Positions 34,460 through 43,700 of a stretch of 64,000 bases of DNA are shown here, in pieces (positions within the stretch are counted from its first letter, which is position 1; every line of letters starts with the position of its first letter). Under the pieces are notes generated by a model, which was given only the letters and a program-made list of their open reading frames with translations, made no database searches and had not been told where the DNA came from. Source of the stretch: Candidatus Cloacimonadales bacterium (lineage in GTDB: Bacteria; Cloacimonadota; Cloacimonadia; Cloacimonadales; JAFGVF01). The stretch covers positions 864,001 through 928,000 of the forward strand of contig OY762964.1 of the NCBI GenBank assembly GCA_963667035.1, written 5' to 3'. Made by a program: the position numbers and the translations under genes.

Positions 34460-34532
34460 GTAGTTTAAGGGAAATGTAGTGAGAGTATGTAATGTTGAGA
34501 TTGAAAATCTGGTATACTCATTCACTATTTAA

Positions 34533-37388
34533 CTAGTAGTCCTCCTTGTCCTGGATTATTCTTCTCAAATTCATATTTCCATATCCATTTTCGGACATGA
34601 AATTCTGAATATGTTTGTATGAGTTTAAATTTTGCCCCGATTCAAAAATAATGTTTAATGCATTTTTCAGACCATCAACAAAATTTGGCGGTGATTCGAT
34701 TCTAATTATCCTCAGTAATTGGAAATTTTTATCGTTAACCAAAATACTCTTTTCCCATGTATTTGTTTCAATACTTCTTAAAGACCTTAACAAAACATCT
34801 TTACAATAACTAACTAGAGGTAAAGATATGGAATCACCATCAATAAAGAATCTGATATGCACATCTTGGATAGTACTCTCATTAATTAAAGTTTTTGCTT
34901 CCCAAGACCATTGATTGAGATGATTGATAAATGTCTCTGGCCCAACCCCTGAACAGACCAGAATTGTTTGATAATTGATTAATACATCCAAAATATTAAG
35001 TTTTTTTCTTTTTTGATTCGTCCCTATCAAATATTTAACTATAGATTTATGCAATCCAAATTGCATTTTAGAGAAATTGATTAATAACTCACCATATCCA
35101 ATATGGTGCTCAATTATGCCAGAAATATTCATGACAAACTCATTGCTAGTATTCTCCAATATAGATAATAATAGTGATTTATGTTGCAGATTTAGATTAT
35201 TATATTTAATTAACAACATGCAAATCAAATCATAGTAGACAACTGAATCGTTATCTGCTCTCTTTAAACGAGCATACAATATTTCATCGGGTAATGCTTT
35301 GTTTTTTTGATTCGGTGTAAACAATTGTTTTATAACGTTTCCTTTTGCACTAAGACTTTTTATATATGAATCAATACGGTTAAGAAATTTTGGTACTTCG
35401 CATTCAGGACTAAGATATGAAATGCATTTCATCTTTTCAATCTCTGATTCATCTATTTTACTTAAAGTTTCATCAAGTTTGCCATAATCAGATGAAATTT
35501 GATATTTGGAATACTCCTCTTTTGCTATCATTAAAAAAGTGATGAATGAATCTACATCGACTTCTTTGCTTTCAAGATTCTCAAAAACATTGATAATATT
35601 TAAATTAGCTAACATGTTAATACTGTTATAATAATCAAGCACAGAAAAAGATTCATGTGTTCGATATTCTTCAATGATCTTCTTCATGTATTCCTGCTTA
35701 TTCTCTATGTTTCGTATTAGAACAATTTGGTAGTCTAGAAGTGCATATTCCTTCAGTTCTCTTTCATAGACTAATTCAATGATACACTTCCAAATGTGTT
35801 TAATCCTAGCTTCTTCATTTTTAGATGCAAATACAGTATTCAGTACTTGCACGCAATTGGGAATGTTCGAAACATTTGTTACAGCATTATCTAGAAGCTC
35901 GAAGAATTCCATAGAATTGCTAATATCACTAACAATTGTTTCATCTCCATTGTTTAACGCTTTAGTTAATGAATCAATAAAAACAACATTTGTAACTTGT
36001 ATTAGAGGCAATTGGTAATAGAGTGATGCAATATTGGACGGCAAATTTGTATCTCTTGAATACAAAAACGCTAGAGAGTTTAAATATGTTGGATTAAAAA
36101 CTTCTGATTGAGGTCTTTCCGAAATTTTAGTTTTTCCAAAAATAAATAAAGCAATATATTCATCAGGAATATCATCTAAAAGAGTTTGTTTGATTGTTAC
36201 AAACTCATTGATAAAAGCAATAATCTTTCTTGGTGTTTGATCACTTGAAAGTAAATCATAAATCTGAGTAACTTTGTTATAATTAGTTTCATCTAGATTT
36301 GTGTTTCCAAAGGCTTCTAGCCATTTCAACCTAAAATATTTTTTCCAATCAACCATCATGGGTGGTGGAACTCGGTAAACAACATCAAATGTTTTATTAA
36401 TATAATCATCGCCAAAGCTGGGTATATCTACATTCGGATCTAAACTATTGTTCATATCTTCATATCTAAATGCACACCTCACATGTGATCGGTCAAATGG
36501 AAGCAATACTCTTATATTCCCATTTCCAGATTCTATTCTTTCCGCAAAGAAAGTATGAATAGAAGACCACAACTCTTGCACTTTATCTTTTGGCAACCTG
36601 TCCATATTATCAAAAACGATTACTAATACATCCATTCCAATATATTTGGAAATATCTAGCATCCAATTACGGAACTCTCTTGAAGAAGGATTAGCTTCAG
36701 AAATCACTTCGAGTGTTGTTGTTTCCATACTATCTTTCTGGTAAAGTGTAAAGAGCTCAGAAAGAGCTGATTTGAATGGTTCTTTATTACCACTTTTTTT
36801 CCCTTTGTTGGTTTTATATGCTAGTATTATAGAATATAAAACTAGTGGTACACTGAAAAGAACCATCTGCATACATATGCTCATTGTTGAATCTTTTATA
36901 ATGTTTAATAATTGCAAGAAGTAGATCGAAAGGATATAAATAATTATCCCAATACTTAGTTTAGGAATTGTTGATGCAGTCGTTTCTTTTTTCTTTGCTA
37001 ATAACGACTTCAGCTTTTTATGTAAAAATGATTCATCTCCTTCTTTTTCTCTAGTTTTAACTAAATGATCTGTCAATTCTTCTATAATAGCTCTTCTTTG
37101 GATATCTTCCTGATGTCCCCATGCATCATATGTAAAAAAATAAAACTTCTGTTTCAATTTTTCCTTTTGTTTTAATCTATTTTCCACGAGTTTAATTAGA
37201 TTTGATTTACCTGAGCCCCATCCACCTTCTATCCCAATCATAATGCAATTACTGTTATTTTTTATTTCGTCACATATTTTATCTGCAATTTTTTTATGAG
37301 CCTGTCCTTCAAACAAATCTTCACCACAAGGATCATTATTGATAATTTTAAATTGTGATCTTGTTATTTTACCATCATCCATCTTCAC
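34533..37388 (-). CDS. KAP-family P-loop NTPase with long C-terminal extension
   Basis: GGWGSGKS Walker A, YDAW, two TM helices inside the NTPase, VFDNMDRL Walker B, YINKTF and TPRK motifs. Confidence 0.9.
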   Translation of the reverse strand: MKMDDGKITRSQFKIINNDPCGEDLFEGQAHKKIADKICDEIKNNSNCIMIGIEGGWGSGKSNLIKLVENRLKQKEKLKQKFYFFTYDAWGHQEDIQRRAIIEELTDHLVKTREKEGDESFLHKKLKSLLAKKKETTASTIPKLSIGIIIYILSIYFLQLLNIIKDSTMSICMQMVLFSVPLVLYSIILAYKTNKGKKSGNKEPFKSALSELFTLYQKDSMETTTLEVISEANPSSREFRNWMLDISKYIGMDVLVIVFDNMDRLPKDKVQELWSSIHTFFAERIESGNGNIRVLLPFDRSHVRCAFRYEDMNNSLDPNVDIPSFGDDYINKTFDVVYRVPPPMMVDWKKYFRLKWLEAFGNTNLDETNYNKVTQIYDLLSSDQTPRKIIAFINEFVTIKQTLLDDIPDEYIALFIFGKTKISERPQSEVFNPTYLNSLAFLYSRDTNLPSNIASLYYQLPLIQVTNVVFIDSLTKALNNGDETIVSDISNSMEFFELLDNAVTNVSNIPNCVQVLNTVFASKNEEARIKHIWKCIIELVYERELKEYALLDYQIVLIRNIENKQEYMKKIIEEYRTHESFSVLDYYNSINMLANLNIINVFENLESKEVDVDSFITFLMIAKEEYSKYQISSDYGKLDETLSKIDESEIEKMKCISYLSPECEVPKFLNRIDSYIKSLSAKGNVIKQLFTPNQKNKALPDEILYARLKRADNDSVVYYDLICMLLIKYNNLNLQHKSLLLSILENTSNEFVMNISGIIEHHIGYGELLINFSKMQFGLHKSIVKYLIGTNQKRKKLNILDVLINYQTILVCSGVGPETFINHLNQWSWEAKTLINESTIQDVHIRFFIDGDSISLPLVSYCKDVLLRSLRSIETNTWEKSILVNDKNFQLLRIIRIESPPNFVDGLKNALNIIFESGQNLNSYKHIQNFMSENGYGNMNLRRIIQDKEDY

Positions 37389-37393
37389 AACTC

Positions 37394-37630
37394 CTACTTC
37401 TTATCTTTTGGTGGACATGGATCATTACCATAACTATTTCCACCTCGAATCTGCCCATTTACACCATGGATCTTGGTGTCTGATTTTTGATTCCTAGCAA
37501 TTTCAGTTGCTACTTGAATCGCTTCTTTTTGAGTATCTGTTCTCTTAGTTAGTCTTGAGTTTCCCTCACCTCTAACACCCCAACCGTTTTCAGTTTTCAC
37601 AACATGTTGATTTTTCCCTTTAGAACCCAT
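37394..37630 (-). CDS. DUF2188 family protein
   Basis: NQHVV..GWGV.GEG..TQKEAI..IH..GQIR..NSYGNDPCPPKD pattern. Confidence 0.9.
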   Translation of the reverse strand: MGSKGKNQHVVKTENGWGVRGEGNSRLTKRTDTQKEAIQVATEIARNQKSDTKIHGVNGQIRGGNSYGNDPCPPKDKK

Positions 37631-37904
37631 TCATCCTCCATATTAATCTATTGTATCAAGAGTTTCTATTCCTAATAGATTTATTAATATATTAGATGTT
37701 TTTTAACATACACATATAAGAGGTCAAGTAATATATTATTCTAATGAAACTTCTATCTATTTTGCGTGCAATTGGCAATTCCTCAGATAGCTCATACATT
37801 AGTTTCTAGTAGCAATTAAGGGAGAACTACGAGAATCCACAGTGCGTTTTATGCGGAGTTTCAGACTTTTATGCTATTTTTAGGCTCTAGTTATTCCCGA
37901 TTTA

Positions 37905-38003
37905 ACAACGCAGTGTGTTTCCACTGTGAAGGCAGTGCGGACGCACTATCCACGCACAGAATCACCGGGTTGACAGTACCTTCACAGTGCGAGAGCAGTG
38001 GGA
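37905..38003. repeat. 11-bp-phased CASTG array, copy 2 (inverted relative to 11655-11752)
   Basis: Motifs at 37911, 37922, 37933, 37944, 37955, 37963, 37974, 37985 and 37996. Confidence 0.8.
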
Positions 38004-38297
38004 AAAATGCGAATTGTTGAACCGGGCTAATTGTGTGCACTAATAGTTTATTCAAACTGACGGGAGAAATAATACAGCTCATAAAAAAGATTAAAGAGAT
38101 TTAACCTTAGTTTTTTTTATTTAGGATGAAGCTAACCTGTTAATATATGTATTGTTCTCTAGATAGATTTAGACATTCTTAAATTTACGTTTTCGATATG
38201 TATAAACATAGATTAAGATACGTAGAAGTAAGAATGCAGATTCCTGATATCATTAAAAACCTTGCATTTGAGATTGGGACTCTTTTTAGATACTAAC

Positions 38298-38651
38298 TTA
38301 GCCTTTTGACTTTATCCTATTTAGCAGCGAGAATACAATCATCAAGATTCCCGATAGAATTAACGGTAATGCCATTGAAAGAAATGCATAGATATTTTCA
38401 TAGAATTTGAGAGCAAATATCATGAGAAGACTAATGAGCAAAACAATAATTCCCCCGGTAAGAGGTTTCTTCCAGGTTGCAAACACAATTGCAAATAAGA
38501 TAAAAGATGGAATATTATGCATCAATAATCCGATAAGTATTTCCCCAAAACATAATCCCTGACCAAAGACATCAAGTGAGAAAACCATAAAAAAAAGAGC
38601 TACCGCAAGTGAAAGTATCCGACCTGTCCAAAGAATCCATTTGTGTTTCAT
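38298..38651 (-). CDS. Small four-TM hypothetical membrane protein
   Basis: Four hydrophobic segments; LMHNIP motif. Confidence 0.75.
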   Translation of the reverse strand: MKHKWILWTGRILSLAVALFFMVFSLDVFGQGLCFGEILIGLLMHNIPSFILFAIVFATWKKPLTGGIIVLLISLLMIFALKFYENIYAFLSMALPLILSGILMIVFSLLNRIKSKG

Positions 38652-38952
38652 TTTATCCCCATTTAATTTAAGCAATTATCTACTGAGTTAGTTGTTTAGT
38701 CAAGAAGAGAATCAAATAGCTCTCTAAACAGTGGAAGAAGTTGCCTTTTCTTTAGAAAATGATGTTTCTACTTCCTAAATAATACTGTTAGTTCTTTGAT
38801 GCTGCAAGCTTTTCTTTATCATCTCAGATACATTGCTATTAAGCTATTGTAGGCTTCTTCTCTATTAATAAATAAAACCTGATTGTACTATTGTTACTTT
38901 TTTCTATTGACTATTTTATTATCACTAAATGATATTGATAATCATCAATGGA

Positions 38953-38972
38953 GGATAACTATTAATTATGGG
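38953..38972 (+). repeat. Left inverted repeat, putative tyrosine-recombinase site
   Basis: GGATAACTATTAATTATGGG, the exact reverse complement of 41158-41177. Confidence 0.85.
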
Positions 38973-38980
38973 TTGTTACT

Positions 38981-39988
38981 ATGCTTGCTAGATTAATACT
39001 CTGTGTTATTAAAGCCACTATTGCTATTGCAGTATTGATAATTTTAGGTAGCATTATTACCCTGTTATTCCAAGGAAAAGCTTCTCTATATAGCTTCATA
39101 ATGGAGAGTGTTGTTAATTTTAACGGGCTGTTAGTTGGAGGATTTGGCTATGGATTGTTGTTTTTTCTTAAATCTAATGGCAAAACAATACTTATCAAGC
39201 TCTTAAATATCATTGAATTAGATTCTGATAGTGCACTATTCTTACAACAACAGTTTAATAGATACATCTCTTGGAAGAGGATCTCACTATCAAGTCTACC
39301 TTTTTACTTGATTGGAAGTGTTGTCCTCATTAACTGTGGGTATCCCTTACATGGTTTTTCAAAATATTATCTAATATTCTTTTCAACGTCAATTTATTTT
39401 GTCGCTTCATTTATTTTCTTTTTCTTCCTATTTGTGATTATATTTTTTATGAAATTGGATTCTCATAATCGAAACATTTCTATAAAAAAAGAGCTTATAT
39501 CCATGGATTTGAATAGTTTCAACATGTTCTTTATCATAACAACAACAGTTGGTATCCTTGCATTGTATCTAGGTTTCAGAGGAACCCTTACAGCTACTTT
39601 TGCTTTAGAAGACTCATTTATCAGAATATTGTTAACTTTACCAATTGTACTATTCATGCCAACAACACTATTATATAGCTTTTATCCTCGCTATGTTCTA
39701 AAGAAGATTAATGAACATACTATCATAGAAAAGTTAAAGTATATTAATCAGACCTATTCTAAGGAATTCTTACAAAACGATACAATAACTCTTAAGGACA
39801 GGCTTGATTTTGAAAGGAATTTAATGGACCTTAAAGATAAGGTTTATTCAGAACTGAAGCAATTCCCCGTATTTAGCTTACGGGATTCATTCTCCATCTT
39901 CATTCTTATTGTATTTTTTATTCAGTTCGTTCTTCACAATGACCCAACGATATCGATATTCTTTAAGAAGATACTTAAGATAATATAG
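38981..39988 (+). CDS. Hypothetical polytopic membrane protein
   Basis: About 7 hydrophobic segments; low GC; no recognised family. Confidence 0.75.
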   Translation: MLARLILCVIKATIAIAVLIILGSIITLLFQGKASLYSFIMESVVNFNGLLVGGFGYGLLFFLKSNGKTILIKLLNIIELDSDSALFLQQQFNRYISWKRISLSSLPFYLIGSVVLINCGYPLHGFSKYYLIFFSTSIYFVASFIFFFFLFVIIFFMKLDSHNRNISIKKELISMDLNSFNMFFIITTTVGILALYLGFRGTLTATFALEDSFIRILLTLPIVLFMPTTLLYSFYPRYVLKKINEHTIIEKLKYINQTYSKEFLQNDTITLKDRLDFERNLMDLKDKVYSELKQFPVFSLRDSFSIFILIVFFIQFVLHNDPTISIFFKKILKII

Positions 39989-41162
39989 ATTTTACAAAGT
40001 TTTTAAAAAGATAATTGTTAGGACTTAGGATTTTCAGTAACTGCTTCTGTTTGAGTATGTCTATAAGATTGAGTTCACCAAAAATGATGTCGAAAACAAG
40101 CTTATCATCTAAGAATTGCATTTGTTCCACGAAATTAGCAAATTTATCTGAATCCCATTTCATCACATCCATGAAAAGCTTTAACTGAAACTTTGTGGCC
40201 AGATTACTAATACCAATATTCTTTAGTGCAAGTAAGTTTTTTCTGTCGGTCCTATTTTCTTTTACCACACAAACTAACTCTTTTGCTAGGTCTTTGTATT
40301 GTTTAAGCATTATAGTAAGAGCGGTTGCTGATGTTGCAGGATTTAACTGACCTGCTTCTCCATAGAAGAATATTTTATTTAAAGCCCTGGTATTAAGATT
40401 TCCAACCGGAATGATGCCATTTACTGAATCATTATCAAAGTAAGTATTATCAAAATAACTTTTCATGTGTGAGTCATTCACAATAAATTCAAATTCCTCT
40501 AGTATCGATTTAGATGAGTATGTACTACTTTGAGTACTGATAATGGCCGCAAAAGCATATTCATTTTTTAATGGGAATAGTTCAAAATATTTAGAAGAGG
40601 ATTGCAATATTATATTTTGAAGCCCTATTGGATTAACTCTTTCTCTTAGCTTAAGTTTCTTCCCAAACATGTGATAGTATCCTTTGATATCAATGATTCC
40701 TTTTGCATTTACAATAGGAGAAGAGTATCCCATACAATCAATTACAAGTTTTACACTATATTTTTTATCTCCGGCAGATATGTTTATTCTATCTTCAACA
40801 TATTCGTAAGAATAAAATTGTGTAGAACACATAACCGGACAATCATTAGCAACAATTGTTTGATAAAGATGATTAATTAGTCGATTCGTATCCCATAAAA
40901 TGTAATTACCAGAACAAGTATATTTAACATTATTGTATCCAACAAAATCTAGATAATCGTATTCATTATCAATGCAGTGAACCAGCTCAGGATTGTCTTT
41001 GATACAATCTTTGTTAGTTAGCCAGTATTTATGAGATGGTATTGATGATTTCTTTTCAATCAATATTATCGAAAGCTCTTTCGACAGTTCACTTGCTAAC
41101 AACAAACCTGATATTCCTGCTCCTAAAATTGCAATGTCAAATTTTGGAGTTTTACAGCCCAT
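39975..41162 (-). CDS. FAD-dependent oxidoreductase (lycopene cyclase/geranylgeranyl reductase-like)
   Basis: DIAILGAGISG Rossmann motif, VIDCMG and YGEAGQLNPATSAT. Confidence 0.75.
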   Translation of the reverse strand: MGCKTPKFDIAILGAGISGLLLASELSKELSIILIEKKSSIPSHKYWLTNKDCIKDNPELVHCIDNEYDYLDFVGYNNVKYTCSGNYILWDTNRLINHLYQTIVANDCPVMCSTQFYSYEYVEDRINISAGDKKYSVKLVIDCMGYSSPIVNAKGIIDIKGYYHMFGKKLKLRERVNPIGLQNIILQSSSKYFELFPLKNEYAFAAIISTQSSTYSSKSILEEFEFIVNDSHMKSYFDNTYFDNDSVNGIIPVGNLNTRALNKIFFYGEAGQLNPATSATALTIMLKQYKDLAKELVCVVKENRTDRKNLLALKNIGISNLATKFQLKLFMDVMKWDSDKFANFVEQMQFLDDKLVFDIIFGELNLIDILKQKQLLKILSPNNYLFKNFVKSILS

Positions 41163-41177
41163 AATTAATAGTTATCC
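41158..41177 (-). repeat. Right inverted repeat, putative tyrosine-recombinase site
   Basis: CCCATAATTAATAGTTATCC; contains the oxidoreductase start codon. Confidence 0.85.
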
Positions 41178-41187
41178 ATTAATCATA

Positions 41188-41600
41188 TCATGCCTCCTTT
41201 AGCGTTGAGAAAGATCTGCGGGGATGTTTTGAATTCATAATCTTCTTTTAAATCTTACGTTTACATGCGTATAAACATAAGTAGTACTGATTGAGCTATG
41301 TCATAGAAAATGTTGGATATACTTAATATCAACGCCTACTTCAAAGAGGAGAGTTGCGAAGGTATGCCTGATGTATGTGAAGTAACAGTTTTATTAATCT
41401 TAGCGATTTTGACACACTTTTTTTATCATTAATCTTAGAGACTAATCAGAGATAGGATTTACAGCAATTATATCTTCAAACTCAAGATAATTAAGAAATG
41501 TTTTCAATGAGGAGTCTTTCCTTTTTGCACACTTGACCTTGTATGCTTTCTTGAAATTATGCTAATAAAGGCCTAAATGACTTTAGTAATTCATGAAACA
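41188..41600 (-). pseudogene. Decayed tyrosine recombinase
   Basis: Fragments KRK..SLKTFLNYLEFEDIIAVNP, ISD*SLRLMIKK, VTSHT/HTFATLLFEVGVDIKYIQHFL*HSSISTTYVYTHV and KHPR; stops, frameshifts and an internal deletion; 5' limit approximate. Confidence 0.88.
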
Positions 41601-41618
41601 TTTAGCAAGGTGCGAGTA

Positions 41619-41810
41619 TCAATCAAACATAAAAATCTCTTCTATAGGTAAGTTAAACACTTTGGCAATATCGTATGCGAGCTTAAGTGACGGATTATAT
41701 TTTCCTTTCTCAAGAAAGACAATTGTCTCCCTTCTCACATTTACCATTTTAGCCAATTGACTCTGGGTTAAATTATCTCGGGCTCTTAGCTCTTTAATTC
41801 TTGTTTTCAT
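41619..41810 (-). CDS. XRE-family HTH regulator
   Basis: [25 protein letters not shown] pattern. Confidence 0.93.
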
Positions 41811-42204
41811 TAAACGTCATCCTAACTATAGTGTAACTGATAAGAAAGGTTAAAGCACTTATTAAGAATCCAAATATCAGAAGGGACTTGGAGAAATCTG
41901 CTTTTTCTGCATAACGATAAATCTCTAACCAAACAAATAGATTAAGAGCTCCCGCATAAGTATTTGCTTTGTTTCTGATTTTCATAGTCAATTCGTCGTC
42001 GTCAGGTTCTCCAGTTCTCTTATTTTTGTATGCTATAAATGCTCCGTAAATGATGACAACTAAACCCGTGATTAGGTAAACAGTCTCTAAAAAGCTTGTT
42101 TTATCAAGCATTCCACTTACTTCAATAACTTTTAATAATACAGCCATCACTATCTGGTGTACTAATACTACTACTCCGACTAATACTAATTTCTTTGCTT
42201 TCAT
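41794..42204 (-). CDS. Membrane protein (DUF2178-like) paired with the XRE regulator
   Basis: Four TM segments; [12 protein letters not shown] motif. Confidence 0.7.
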
Positions 42205-42457
42205 ATCTTCACCTTATGTTATAAATATATAACAAGATGTTAGAAATAGTTAATAATAGTCAAGAAGAAAATTATGTAATGTTTCTTTATCCTCCTGGAG
42301 ATACAATCCTTTTTAGGATATATCGGGAGTAATAAGAAGAGTGTGTAAACTTCAATTTGTTATCAAGTACTTTTAAAATGCAATACTGGGATTTGTGGAT
42401 CGTGATTTCTATAAAACATTTGACAAACAGCATCGTTAAAATATAGATGACTCAATT

Positions 42458-42568
42458 CTGTTTTCGGGGCTGGGTGAAATTCCCGACCGGTGGTAAAGTC
42501 CACGAGCCGAAAGGTTGAATTGGTGAAATTCCAATACCGACAGTTAAAGTCTGGAGGAGAGAAAACAG
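42458..42568 (+). ncRNA. FMN riboswitch (RFN element)
   Basis: TTCGGGGCTGGGTGAAATTCCCGACCGGTGGT...ACCGACAGTTAAAGTCTGGAGGAGAGAA upstream of the rib operon. Confidence 0.97.
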
Positions 42569-42608
42569 TTCTTAACTCGTTCCAAGCCCCGGTGCGAGGT
42601 TTTTTATT

Positions 42609-43700
42609 ATGTGCAAAAAATTTATGAAACGAGCCCTTGAACTTGCAAAAGAGTTTGAAGGACGTACAACTCCCAATCCGATGGTAGGAGCCGTATTGGT
42701 AAAAGACGGTGTAATTATCGGAGAAGCAGCTCACCACAAAGCAGGTGAACCCCATGCGGAGGTTAATGCAATTAACAGTGCAACCTGCTCCCCTTCCGGT
42801 TCAACCCTTTATGTCACCTTAGAGCCATGTTCTCATTACGGGAAAACACCACCTTGTGCTGATTTGATTATCAAATCGGAGATTGCTGAAGTTTATGTAG
42901 CGATGACTGATCCTAATCCTCTTGTAAATGGAAAAGGGATTAAGAAGATGCAAGATGCAGGGATAGTAGTACACGTGGGATTATTGGAAAGTGAAGCTGA
43001 GCAGTTAAACGAAGTCTTTATCCATAACGTCACAAAGAAAAGGGCTCATTTTGCTTTGAAAACTGCGATAAGTTTAGACGGCAAAATTGCTACTTCCGGA
43101 ATGGATTCCAAATGGATAACATGCGAAGCTTCCCGTAAGGAAACTCATCGACTTAGAAGTATTTATGATGCAATTCTTGTTGGTAAGAATACCTTTATCA
43201 AGGATAATCCTTCCTTGAACATCAGATTTGATTATCAAGTCATGAAAGAACCCGATAAAATAATCTTGGTAGATAAGTGGGAATGGGAGAAAGATGTCAT
43301 TGTTTCAAGCAATGCTTATCAAACACTTAGCACCAACAAGCTCTACTTTGCCGTGCCACTTTCCGAAATTGAAAAGGCAAGGTCTATTACAAAGCTAATT
43401 GATAAAGTAGATATTATTCCATTCAATAGTTTTAGCGATTTGCCGGAAATACTATATGATATTGGTGTAATGAGTGTGTTCATTGAAGGTGGAAGTGGAG
43501 TTTACAATAGTTCTGTTAAAGTAGGAATGATTAATAAATACTATTTGTTTAATGCCCCGATACTACTTGGCAATGAAGGAATAGGTTGGAGTGGAAATCT
43601 TGGTATTGCCACTGTGAAAGATAGCATAAGATTAAAAATAGCTAAAGTAATTCGGTTTGATACCGATACATTAACTATTTTGTATCCTGAGGAGAACTAA
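42609..43700 (+). CDS. ribD: Riboflavin biosynthesis deaminase/reductase
   Basis: PNPMVGAV, HAE, LEPCSHYGKTPPC and EGG motifs. Confidence 0.97.
   Translation: MCKKFMKRALELAKEFEGRTTPNPMVGAVLVKDGVIIGEAAHHKAGEPHAEVNAINSATCSPSGSTLYVTLEPCSHYGKTPPCADLIIKSEIAEVYVAMTDPNPLVNGKGIKKMQDAGIVVHVGLLESEAEQLNEVFIHNVTKKRAHFALKTAISLDGKIATSGMDSKWITCEASRKETHRLRSIYDAILVGKNTFIKDNPSLNIRFDYQVMKEPDKIILVDKWEWEKDVIVSSNAYQTLSTNKLYFAVPLSEIEKARSITKLIDKVDIIPFNSFSDLPEILYDIGVMSVFIEGGSGVYNSSVKVGMINKYYLFNAPILLGNEGIGWSGNLGIATVKDSIRLKIAKVIRFDTDTLTILYPEEN

Follow-up and report, generated by a model that had tools for sequence, protein, structure and literature searches.

In the Mu G segment, the P1 C segment, and the e14 P segment, the serine invertases Gin, Cin, and Pin flip a multi-kb segment which carries inward-facing genes, has a fixed promoter outside, and adjoins the invertase gene. 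The Mycoplasma loci vpma, vsp, and vsa have an adjoining tyrosine recombinase (Xer1, HvsR), short 5′ sites, and promoterless genes which are inverted to one expression site. Integrons combine a tyrosine recombinase platform and its outside promoter with promoterless, exchangeable cassettes. In plasmid dif modules of Acinetobacter, genes lie between inverted dif-like pdif sites, which have an ATAA...TTAT core and enclose diverse cargo shuffled from one replicon to another (excerpts of PMC6449649, PMC13141974, PMC11705084). Gene-altering programmed inversions and hsdS invertons have inverted repeats, a nearby recombinase, and heterogeneity within the population (excerpts of PMC9881135 and PMC7672463). 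Each of these systems resembles in part a locus from a Candidatus Cloacimonadales bacterium (assembly GCA_963667035.1), which we analyzed in a window of 64,000 nucleotides (the whole stretch examined; contig OY762964.1, positions 864,001 to 928,000). Here, two convergent genes, coding for a membrane protein and an FAD (flavin adenine dinucleotide)-type oxidoreductase, are enclosed by inverted copies of a short site next to a decayed recombinase gene. We consider it likely, with a probability of about 0.8, that this is a two-gene cassette which is flipped by a recombinase and can be replaced as a unit.

The cassette is 2.2 kb long and its genes overlap by 14 nt at their 3′ ends. It is bounded by GGATAACTATTAATTATGGG, a perfect 20-bp inverted repeat (Table 1), the arms of which can be extended to 24 nt at 96% identity (38953-38976 and 41154-41177). 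When up to three mismatches are allowed, GGATAACTATTAATTATGGG has exactly two matches in the window, compared to an expectation of 0.03, and two or more matches were obtained in none of 100 shuffled sequences. A chance origin of the repeat is thus rejected, and the perfect repeat around two convergent genes reported in the first-pass annotation is confirmed. In the whole 3.1-Mb genome, the same search returned only four matches, which form two inverted pairs; the reversed pattern, used as a control, had no match in this genome.

Table 1. Features of the cassette locus (positions within the window)
Feature	Position	Strand	Basis or remark
Left recombination site	38953..38972	+	family core 38954-38970 = GATAAC-TATTA-ATTATG
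Right recombination site	41158..41177	-	perfect inverted copy of left site
GGAGG, possible ribosome-binding site, overlapping the outer edge of the left site	38950..38954	+	sequence reading
Promoter-like flank outside the cassette, reading inward: TTGACT, 17-18 nt, TGATAT/GATATT	38907..38936	+	
Mini open reading frame MGCYYAC, 7 codons, opened by the ATG of the site	38969..38992	+	ATG GGT TGT TAC TAT GCT TGC TAG
Cargo gene 1: 335-aa all-helical membrane protein, no known family	38981..39988	+	predicted model, pLDDT (predicted local distance difference test) 88.5
Cargo gene 2: 395-aa FAD-dependent oxidoreductase, lycopene-cyclase/geranylgeranyl-reductase fold	39975..41162	-	Pfam Lycopene_cycl 6.7e-07
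Decayed Xer-like tyrosine recombinase gene	41188..41620	-	translations and two matching pieces
Possible scrap of a third recombinase 3′ end, weak	38179..38210	-	72% direct repeat of 41248-41279

The second pair of sites lies 306 kb away in the same genome (termed G000), at G000:C1:596352-71 and 599936-55, and has the sequence GATAACTATTTATTATG. The layout of this sister locus is like that of the window: the TTGACT flank is followed by ATCAATGGAG, GATAACTATTTATTATG, a gene for a 416-aa SHMT-like protein, a convergent gene for a 783-aa STAND/TPR nucleoside triphosphatase (NTPase), and the inverted site. Only 1 nt beyond this inverted site is the stop codon of an intact gene for a tyrosine recombinase of 320 aa (P0001). 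Sequence similarity of the two loci is limited to the recombinase side (73% at the nucleotide level) and to 36 bp of the far flank, while the cargo is unrelated. Within the conserved far flank, the TTGACT box (38907-12 in the window) has exactly the same distance to the site at both loci, and ATCAATGGAGGATAAC, which occupies the position of the GGAGG in the window, recurs at the sister locus. Both the GGAGG at 38950 and the TTGACT at 38907 had been described in the first-pass annotation and are present as described; the intact paralogue, with its possible action in trans, and the replacement of cassettes at the sites had gone without mention there. The central base is the same in both sites of each locus and differs between the two loci (A vs. 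T).

The dead tyrosine recombinase which had been noted beside the right site of the window is real. Two pieces of it can be matched, one covering residues 63-114 (56% identity, one TAG codon, window positions 41406-41561) and the other residues 257-302 (67% identity, two TGA codons, window positions 41235-41372). Besides these stops, there is a frameshift, and about 410 bp from the middle of the gene are gone, including the codons for the catalytic residues R162, K186, and H255. The C-terminal motifs RHTFAT... and YVYTHV are still recognizable, and about 10 nt separate the end of the reading frame from the right site. With R162, K186, and H255 deleted or changed and a frame interrupted by stops, the window copy does not qualify as a tyrosine recombinase.

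P0001 is the sole intact member of its family in the genome. It has the Pfam domains PF02899 (SAM-like N-terminal domain) and PF00589 (catalytic domain), and its residues R162, K186, H255, R258, H281, and Y290 are invariant in 28 aligned family members. Its scores are below the NCBIfam equivalog cut-offs for both XerC (247.3 bits, cut-off 335) and XerD (244.3 bits, cut-off 329.6) and far below those of two integron-integrase models (131 bits, cut-off 265; 79 bits, cut-off 435). It is thus an Xer-like enzyme of the tyrosine type and not a member of the serine recombinases. More than 7,700 homologues with E <= 1e-20 were found among 8,000 candidates scored. The best named match is from Candidatus Cloacimonetes (65% identity), and proteins from Bacteroidota, Firmicutes, and Arcobacter reach about 50-55% identity. 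The genome has two more Xer-type genes, which are 31% identical to P0001; one of these (G000:C1:2317949-2318818) carries an in-frame TAG.

Among 61 related genomes which were searched for the exact core of the site, it is present only in G000 and in a genome from another family (G048). The latter has an inverted pair with a distance of 4.9 kb, adjoining an intact recombinase that is 44% identical to P0001, and a third site at a contig end; all sites of G048 have different cargo. A broader set of 80 loci was collected by recombinase similarity (loci are designated by L and a number). An identical inverted GATAA-N7-TTAT pair adjoins the recombinase in 27 of these 80 loci, many of those without a pair being cut by contig ends, and none has a direct identical pair. 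The cassette is located downstream, with the recombinase reading into it, in 17 of the paired loci, upstream with divergent orientation in nine, and elsewhere in one. An independent test based on 20-mers detected an inverted downstream partner in 13 of 44 cases and a direct one in 1 of 44, with 0 of 47 in the upstream control. All loci found have a dedicated recombinase which directly adjoins a site, and the hosts span several phyla.

An alignment of 50 site pairs revealed that positions 1-16 are identical within the pair in 50 of 50 cases and position 17 in 86%; seven outer positions are about 70% identical, and identity is at background level further out. Between loci, the five bases of the center vary, and GATAA and TTAT are invariant. 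The consensus for the family is GATAAY-N5-ATTATC/G, the center being identical within a pair, and the ATAA-N7-TTAT dyad recognized in the first-pass annotation is the invariant core of the site. For a tyrosine recombinase, the overlap regions of partner sites must match, so centers that are matched within pairs and vary between loci are to be expected. As in invertible elements, inverted sites with identical crossover regions are located beside a recombinase gene, and intact homologues of the decayed enzyme have the same kind of flanking sites and variable cargo. Intact homologues lacking such sites had been named in the first-pass annotation as a refutation of its interpretation, which this outcome supports.

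The earlier statement on the ATG within the site is valid for the window, where it is the start codon of the oxidoreductase gene on the right and opens the mini reading frame MGCYYAC on the left. It is restricted to this site variant, as position 17 is C in 72% of the sites. Mini reading frames of 4-5 codons likewise follow two sites of G048, and homologous membrane protein genes have a start codon of their own a few nucleotides past the site. We consider MGCYYAC to be probably incidental.

One complete cassette locus is found on a sequenced plasmid with a cultured carrier, pACRY43158 of Aliarcobacter cryaerophilus ATCC 43158 (L196 7001-11781). Its recombinase is 51% identical, its sites are an identical inverted pair of GATAATAGGTAATTAT, and its cargo consists of a gene for an 803-aa protein and a gene pair, ATP-grasp plus YbaK. 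The gene behind the ATP-grasp gene belongs to the YbaK/EbsC family (aminoacyl-tRNA deacylase type), which hints at aminoacyl chemistry in cassettes that combine an NTPase with an ATP-grasp protein. Other cultured carriers are Paenibacillus lentus P8CEA5 (L042) and Maribellus maritimus 5E3 (L027). A further peculiarity is the occurrence of double site motifs, spaced by 36-45 nt, at each end of the cassettes of L043 (9971-10022, 14092-14143), L094 (3774-3835, 8813-8873), and L090. In these cassettes the inverted repeats exceed 50 nt, which makes the outermost few dozen bases of the cassette the same at both ends.

The oxidoreductase of the window belongs to a small family, with 84 proteins at E <= 1e-10 among 5.8 billion. 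Approximately 17 of the 84 are from assemblies with a longest contig of 2.2-2.3 kb, which is the length from repeat to repeat. Assemblies from short reads seem to be regularly interrupted at these sites, and this may be the reason why the family escaped notice. Metagenome loci with the oxidoreductase were fetched (78), and 76 of these (L104-L179) were examined for both genes. The convergent membrane protein gene is right behind the oxidoreductase gene in 60 of the 76 loci. Where both ends are readable, an inverted GATAAY-N5-ATTATC pair is present in 33 of 35 loci, with a spacing of 2.2-2.3 kb, or of 2.9-3.2 kb where an extra gene is present; eight loci terminate exactly at a site. In 10 loci the recombinase is next to the oxidoreductase gene, in 14 it is next to the membrane protein gene, and both co-oriented and divergent layouts occur.

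Direct evidence for inversion comes from two of these metagenome loci, L138 and L139, which originate from different samples. Their cassettes differ by one mismatch in 2188 nt. The 3.5-kb flank which follows the end of the membrane protein gene in L138 is 100% identical to the reverse complement of the flank which precedes the end of the oxidoreductase gene in L139. Resolved to single bases, this flank meets TGATAACTAGGAATTATC at opposite ends of the cassette in the two contigs, which places the breakpoint within 18 bp. Inversion is thus shown for this cassette family. Across species, both orientations occur in nature: both flanks are exchanged when L116 is compared to L119 and L120 (about 72% identity); the pair of the window is found in L088 (37% and 35% identity, the latter for the membrane protein) in the opposite orientation relative to the recombinase; and the same holds for the sister locus when compared to L102 (54% and 64% identity), and for L005 versus L102. 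The first-pass annotation had proposed a shufflon-like switch that swaps whole cargo genes. The inversion of whole genes is borne out by the flipped homologous cassette, while "shufflon-like" is an overstatement for a system with two sites and one segment.

The cassettes are filled from edge to edge. The median distance between a long open reading frame start and the site edge is 14.5 nt; of 58 ends, 44 have the start no more than 30 nt from the site and 54 no more than 75 nt. Where recombinase and cassette are co-oriented, the stop codon of the recombinase gene directly adjoins the site, so that no room is left for a terminator. Promoter-like boxes are seen in the far flank: TTGACT with a spacing of 17/18 at both G000 loci, TGnTATAAT or TATAAT 10-25 nt ahead of the site in L042, L043, L089, L090, L032, and G048, and T-rich TAnnTTTG-like motifs in Bacteroidota loci. 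For the window, it is the conservation of the promoter-like flank at the sister locus that counts, not the match in a promoter scan. Because there are promoter-like boxes outside the cassette and no terminator room after the recombinase gene, each cargo gene is probably transcribed from outside. The fixed expression signals postulated earlier are supported by the flank conserved at the sister locus; their consequence for expression is what we infer from the arrangement.

The following mechanism is likely to account for these data. The 20-bp repeats serve as sites for a dedicated tyrosine recombinase of the Xer-like type, which binds the GATAA/TTAT arms and exchanges strands in the pair-specific center; recombination between the inverted sites flips the cassette, as is shown for the family. 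As start codons abut the sites, there is almost no room for promoters of the cargo itself, and each gene would end up either behind the fixed promoter-like far flank or directly behind the recombinase gene. Judged from the gene arrangement, flipping would exchange which gene sits behind which signal. Replacement of entire cassettes takes place at the same sites. In the window, the intact P0001, encoded at the distant sister locus, the sites of which have the same binding arms, could act in trans.

Replacement was analyzed with a tree of 45 recombinases, in which the rows with an oxidoreductase were chosen by cargo and hence are uninformative on cargo scatter. Sister recombinases with different cargo are well supported by the Shimodaira-Hasegawa-like approximate likelihood ratio test, the pairs being L069/L070 (99), L027/L102 (100), L089/L090 (100), L060/L066 (100), and L094/L100 (99). 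Identical types of cargo appear in clades that are far apart, the 4 rows with SHMT plus NTPase requiring 4 changes and the 6 rows with NTPase plus ATP-grasp requiring 5, as in shuffled data. At the DNA level, homology between L069 and L070 is limited to the recombinase gene (83.6%) and to the site regions, and that between L027 and L102 stops 6 nt into the site. The two G000 loci likewise share recombinase and sites and not the cargo. Since the cargo of sister recombinases is unrelated and homology extends no further than the sites, we conclude that cassettes are replaced there.

Several types of cargo recur. A STAND-type NTPase (about 800 or 1030-1140 aa) is opposite an SHMT-like protein, an ATP-grasp protein (with or without GNAT), a glycosyltransferase, or a carbamoyltransferase. 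A pentapeptide protein is combined with an aminotransferase or with an ATP-grasp/radical-SAM enzyme. A methyltransferase, a spermidine-synthase-like protein, or a UbiA or polyprenyl-synthase enzyme is combined with a partner of unknown type. When 25 cargo proteins were analyzed with PADLOC, only the pair from L027 was a clear system, namely Thoeris (ThsA 1e-98, ThsB 8.8e-10). The two genes of Thoeris are needed together.

The replacement data also permit a reading in which the sites serve mainly for capture and exchange of cassettes, that is, as a natural form of recombinase-mediated cassette exchange, with flipping as a by-product that has no regulatory role. The head-on layout would then let a promoterless cassette work either way between two outside promoters. 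Close recombinases with the same sites and unrelated cargo, homology that stops at these sites, and cargo labels scattered over the recombinase tree as in shuffles are all in line with it, as are the about equal frequency of both orientations, the recombinase stop codon without terminator room behind it, and a Thoeris cassette in which both genes are needed at once. On the other hand, no donor form was seen (neither a circle nor a plasmid cassette lacking the platform), and exchange is deduced from comparisons in which the oxidoreductase rows of the tree cannot be used because they were selected by cargo. We regard this reading as a serious possibility, if somewhat less probable than not; it is compatible with a recombinase-flipped, replaceable cassette.

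Whether the window cassette still flips was evaluated with three runs (X1-X3) of one sample, analyzed as contigs, in which the locus has a depth of 4-8x. In X3, contigs cover 37989-38972, 38953-41177, and 41158-42549, and thus break at all four repeat boundaries. X3 alone has two records which fit two places. Since a 20-bp repeat alone cannot break a graph built with k=31, such contig ends would be expected if both junction forms were present in X3. These breaks, found in one of three assemblies, hint at current inversion at the window locus. As a separate observation, a contig with a depth of 58-103x, compared to 4-8x for this genome, carries both 20-mers of the window; the sample thus probably contains another DNA, of higher abundance, in which a cassette has this same site pair.

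Several points weigh against the mechanism proposed above. In X1 and X2, a single contig runs straight through the window cassette in the reference orientation, and no inverted junction of the window locus was seen in X1-X3, which are contigs in which overhangs of 10 nt would not show. The adjacent recombinase is dead, and the one differing central base may bar exchange across the two loci. Only 27 of the 80 homologue loci have a site pair, and some of the others may have no cassette; also, the search for site pairs by exact or near-exact matching is biased toward identical centers. Promoter and terminator scans of the two G000 loci did not exceed shuffled sequences (23 vs. 17.6 +/- 4.7 and 22 vs. 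33.7). If both flanks drive transcription, flipping may change little, and transcription from both sides can be argued for because the Thoeris cassette needs both genes at once. The sites, the family, inversion in a near-identical pair of relatives, and replacement of cargo at the sites are what the data show; current activity at the window, action of P0001 in trans, and any effect on expression are what we infer.

In a rival view, the window cassette is a frozen relic, once invertible and locked since the recombinase decayed, with the breaks in X3 being an assembly quirk. The stops, the frameshift, and the deletion in the remnant fit this view, and so do the two of three assemblies which read through in one orientation. 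However, the sites are still perfect over 20 bp beside the wrecked gene, and an intact paralogue with the same arms is encoded in the genome. X3 not only ends at all four boundaries, for which a 20-bp repeat at k=31 needs alternative junctions, but is also the one assembly that has the records fitting two places. We thus consider a frozen relic unlikely.

Terminal inverted repeats of a small transposon or of an element similar to a miniature inverted-repeat transposable element, carrying both genes, would explain inverted 20-bp ends around a 2.2-kb unit and the absence of this unit, together with the whole 8-kb island around it, from genomes of the same genus; but there is no transposase, no target duplication can be seen next to the repeats, the flanking sequences themselves are conserved between loci, and a recombinase gene always abuts one site. 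The L138/L139 cassettes, flipped in place between identical flanks, contradict this interpretation, which we regard as extremely improbable. Equally far-fetched is the idea that the two genes are co-regulated and share an operator or an element of translational control at their 5′ ends: the dyad does overlap both start regions, but the flipped relatives, the pair-specific centers, and the replacement of cargo at the element contradict it, and the obligatory recombinase neighbor would be left unexplained.

The cargo genes of the window provide few indications of their function. The membrane protein has no match in Pfam, PADLOC, or NCBIfam, the ESM Atlas yielded no function, and its model has no fold match in PDB at E <= 0.001. 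The model of the oxidoreductase (pLDDT 89.9) is closest to geranylgeranyl reductases (TM score 0.76), while in a PDB sequence profile search the match is confined to the FAD-binding motif. That the substrate is an isoprenoid lipid is a reasonable guess, no more. The PADLOC defense models matched neither cargo protein of the window.

The cassette is part of an 8-kb stretch (34465-42412), which genomes of the same genus (G001-G003) lack entirely at this position. Besides the cassette and the recombinase remnant, it contains a gene for a 951-aa KAP P-loop NTPase (with weak PifA/QatA matches), DUF2188, a repeat element, DUF7670, and a pair of a helix-turn-helix and a membrane protein gene. It looks like a variable, defense-type island. 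The adjacent rib operon is conserved (75%). For the sister locus, the flanks are on different contigs in G001, so that insertion boundaries cannot be defined. At 37833-38021 there is a G+C-rich dispersed repeat of about 190 nt, of which dozens of copies with 67-96% identity occur on both strands in G001-G003. In the sample contigs, the depth of this repeat reaches 166x at 37948-37958, and a variant copy has 13 differences; no Rfam or tRNA match was found for it. An ordinary flavin mononucleotide (FMN) riboswitch (42456-42570, 117 bits) precedes ribD/ribE/ribBA. Over 37400-42700, Rfam returned nothing but this riboswitch, and ARAGORN returned no match.

A search of the full-text literature, which does not cover subscription journals, returned no description of this cassette system, and such a widespread cassette family is apparently not in print. 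The screen by Milman et al. (2023), according to an excerpt, considered repeats only if they were 22 bp or longer and if one or both lay strictly within a coding sequence (PMC9881135). With sites of 16-20 bp at or before both start codons, the class found in the window would be filtered out by such settings.

As a broader interpretation, to which we would give slightly less than an even chance, the loci may represent a cross-phylum socket-and-plug system. The socket would be the dedicated recombinase with the outside promoter, and the plug a promoterless head-on gene pair which is flipped and exchanged. By flipping, strong expression would pass from one partner to the other, and the pair may be armed or disarmed in this way. 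Most pairs would consist of a STAND-type NTPase and an enzyme that modifies small molecules, one is Thoeris, and others have isoprenoid or sugar enzymes. The system would thus be a two-ended counterpart of the integron for conflict-type pairs.

If this is true, at least five phyla, including gut Firmicutes and Bacteroidota, soil lineages, and Arcobacter plasmids, keep immune or envelope-modifying gene pairs in a standard cassette format. Within a population the cassettes could be inverted, and a 17-bp address would let them be swapped from one genome to another. This would add a route of phase variation and gene exchange and would account for the frequent breaks of short-read assemblies around these loci. 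A recombinase with an inverted GATAA-N7-TTAT pair would be a handle for finding new two-gene systems, most of the cargo being uncharacterized. Recombinase-site pairs, each with centers of its own, could serve as orthogonal tools for inversion or cassette exchange.

The comparison with the systems named at the outset reveals the following differences. The Mycoplasma loci consist of homologous gene families for surface lipoproteins and have many sites, whereas the family described here has two sites and one cassette, carries unrelated pairs with enzymes or NTPases, and is found in many phyla. In the Gin, Cin, and Pin systems, the sites are inside a gene with a constant N-terminus and the alternatives are versions of one tail-fiber gene. 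The present family has a tyrosine recombinase, its sites are at or before the start codons, the unrelated genes always occur together, and cassettes are also replaced. PinQ was included in this comparison on the basis of an excerpt (PMC12529663). The dif modules, as far as the excerpts cited above describe them, depend on the XerC/XerD of the host, lack a dedicated recombinase, and are confined to plasmids of one genus. In contrast, the loci described here have a dedicated recombinase abutting one site, are chromosomal as well as plasmid-borne, occur in many phyla, and carry a head-on pair that starts at the sites. Unlike integrons, they have neither attC hairpins nor cassette arrays; their sites are inverted duplex dyads of 17 bp, and the cassettes flip rather than excise.

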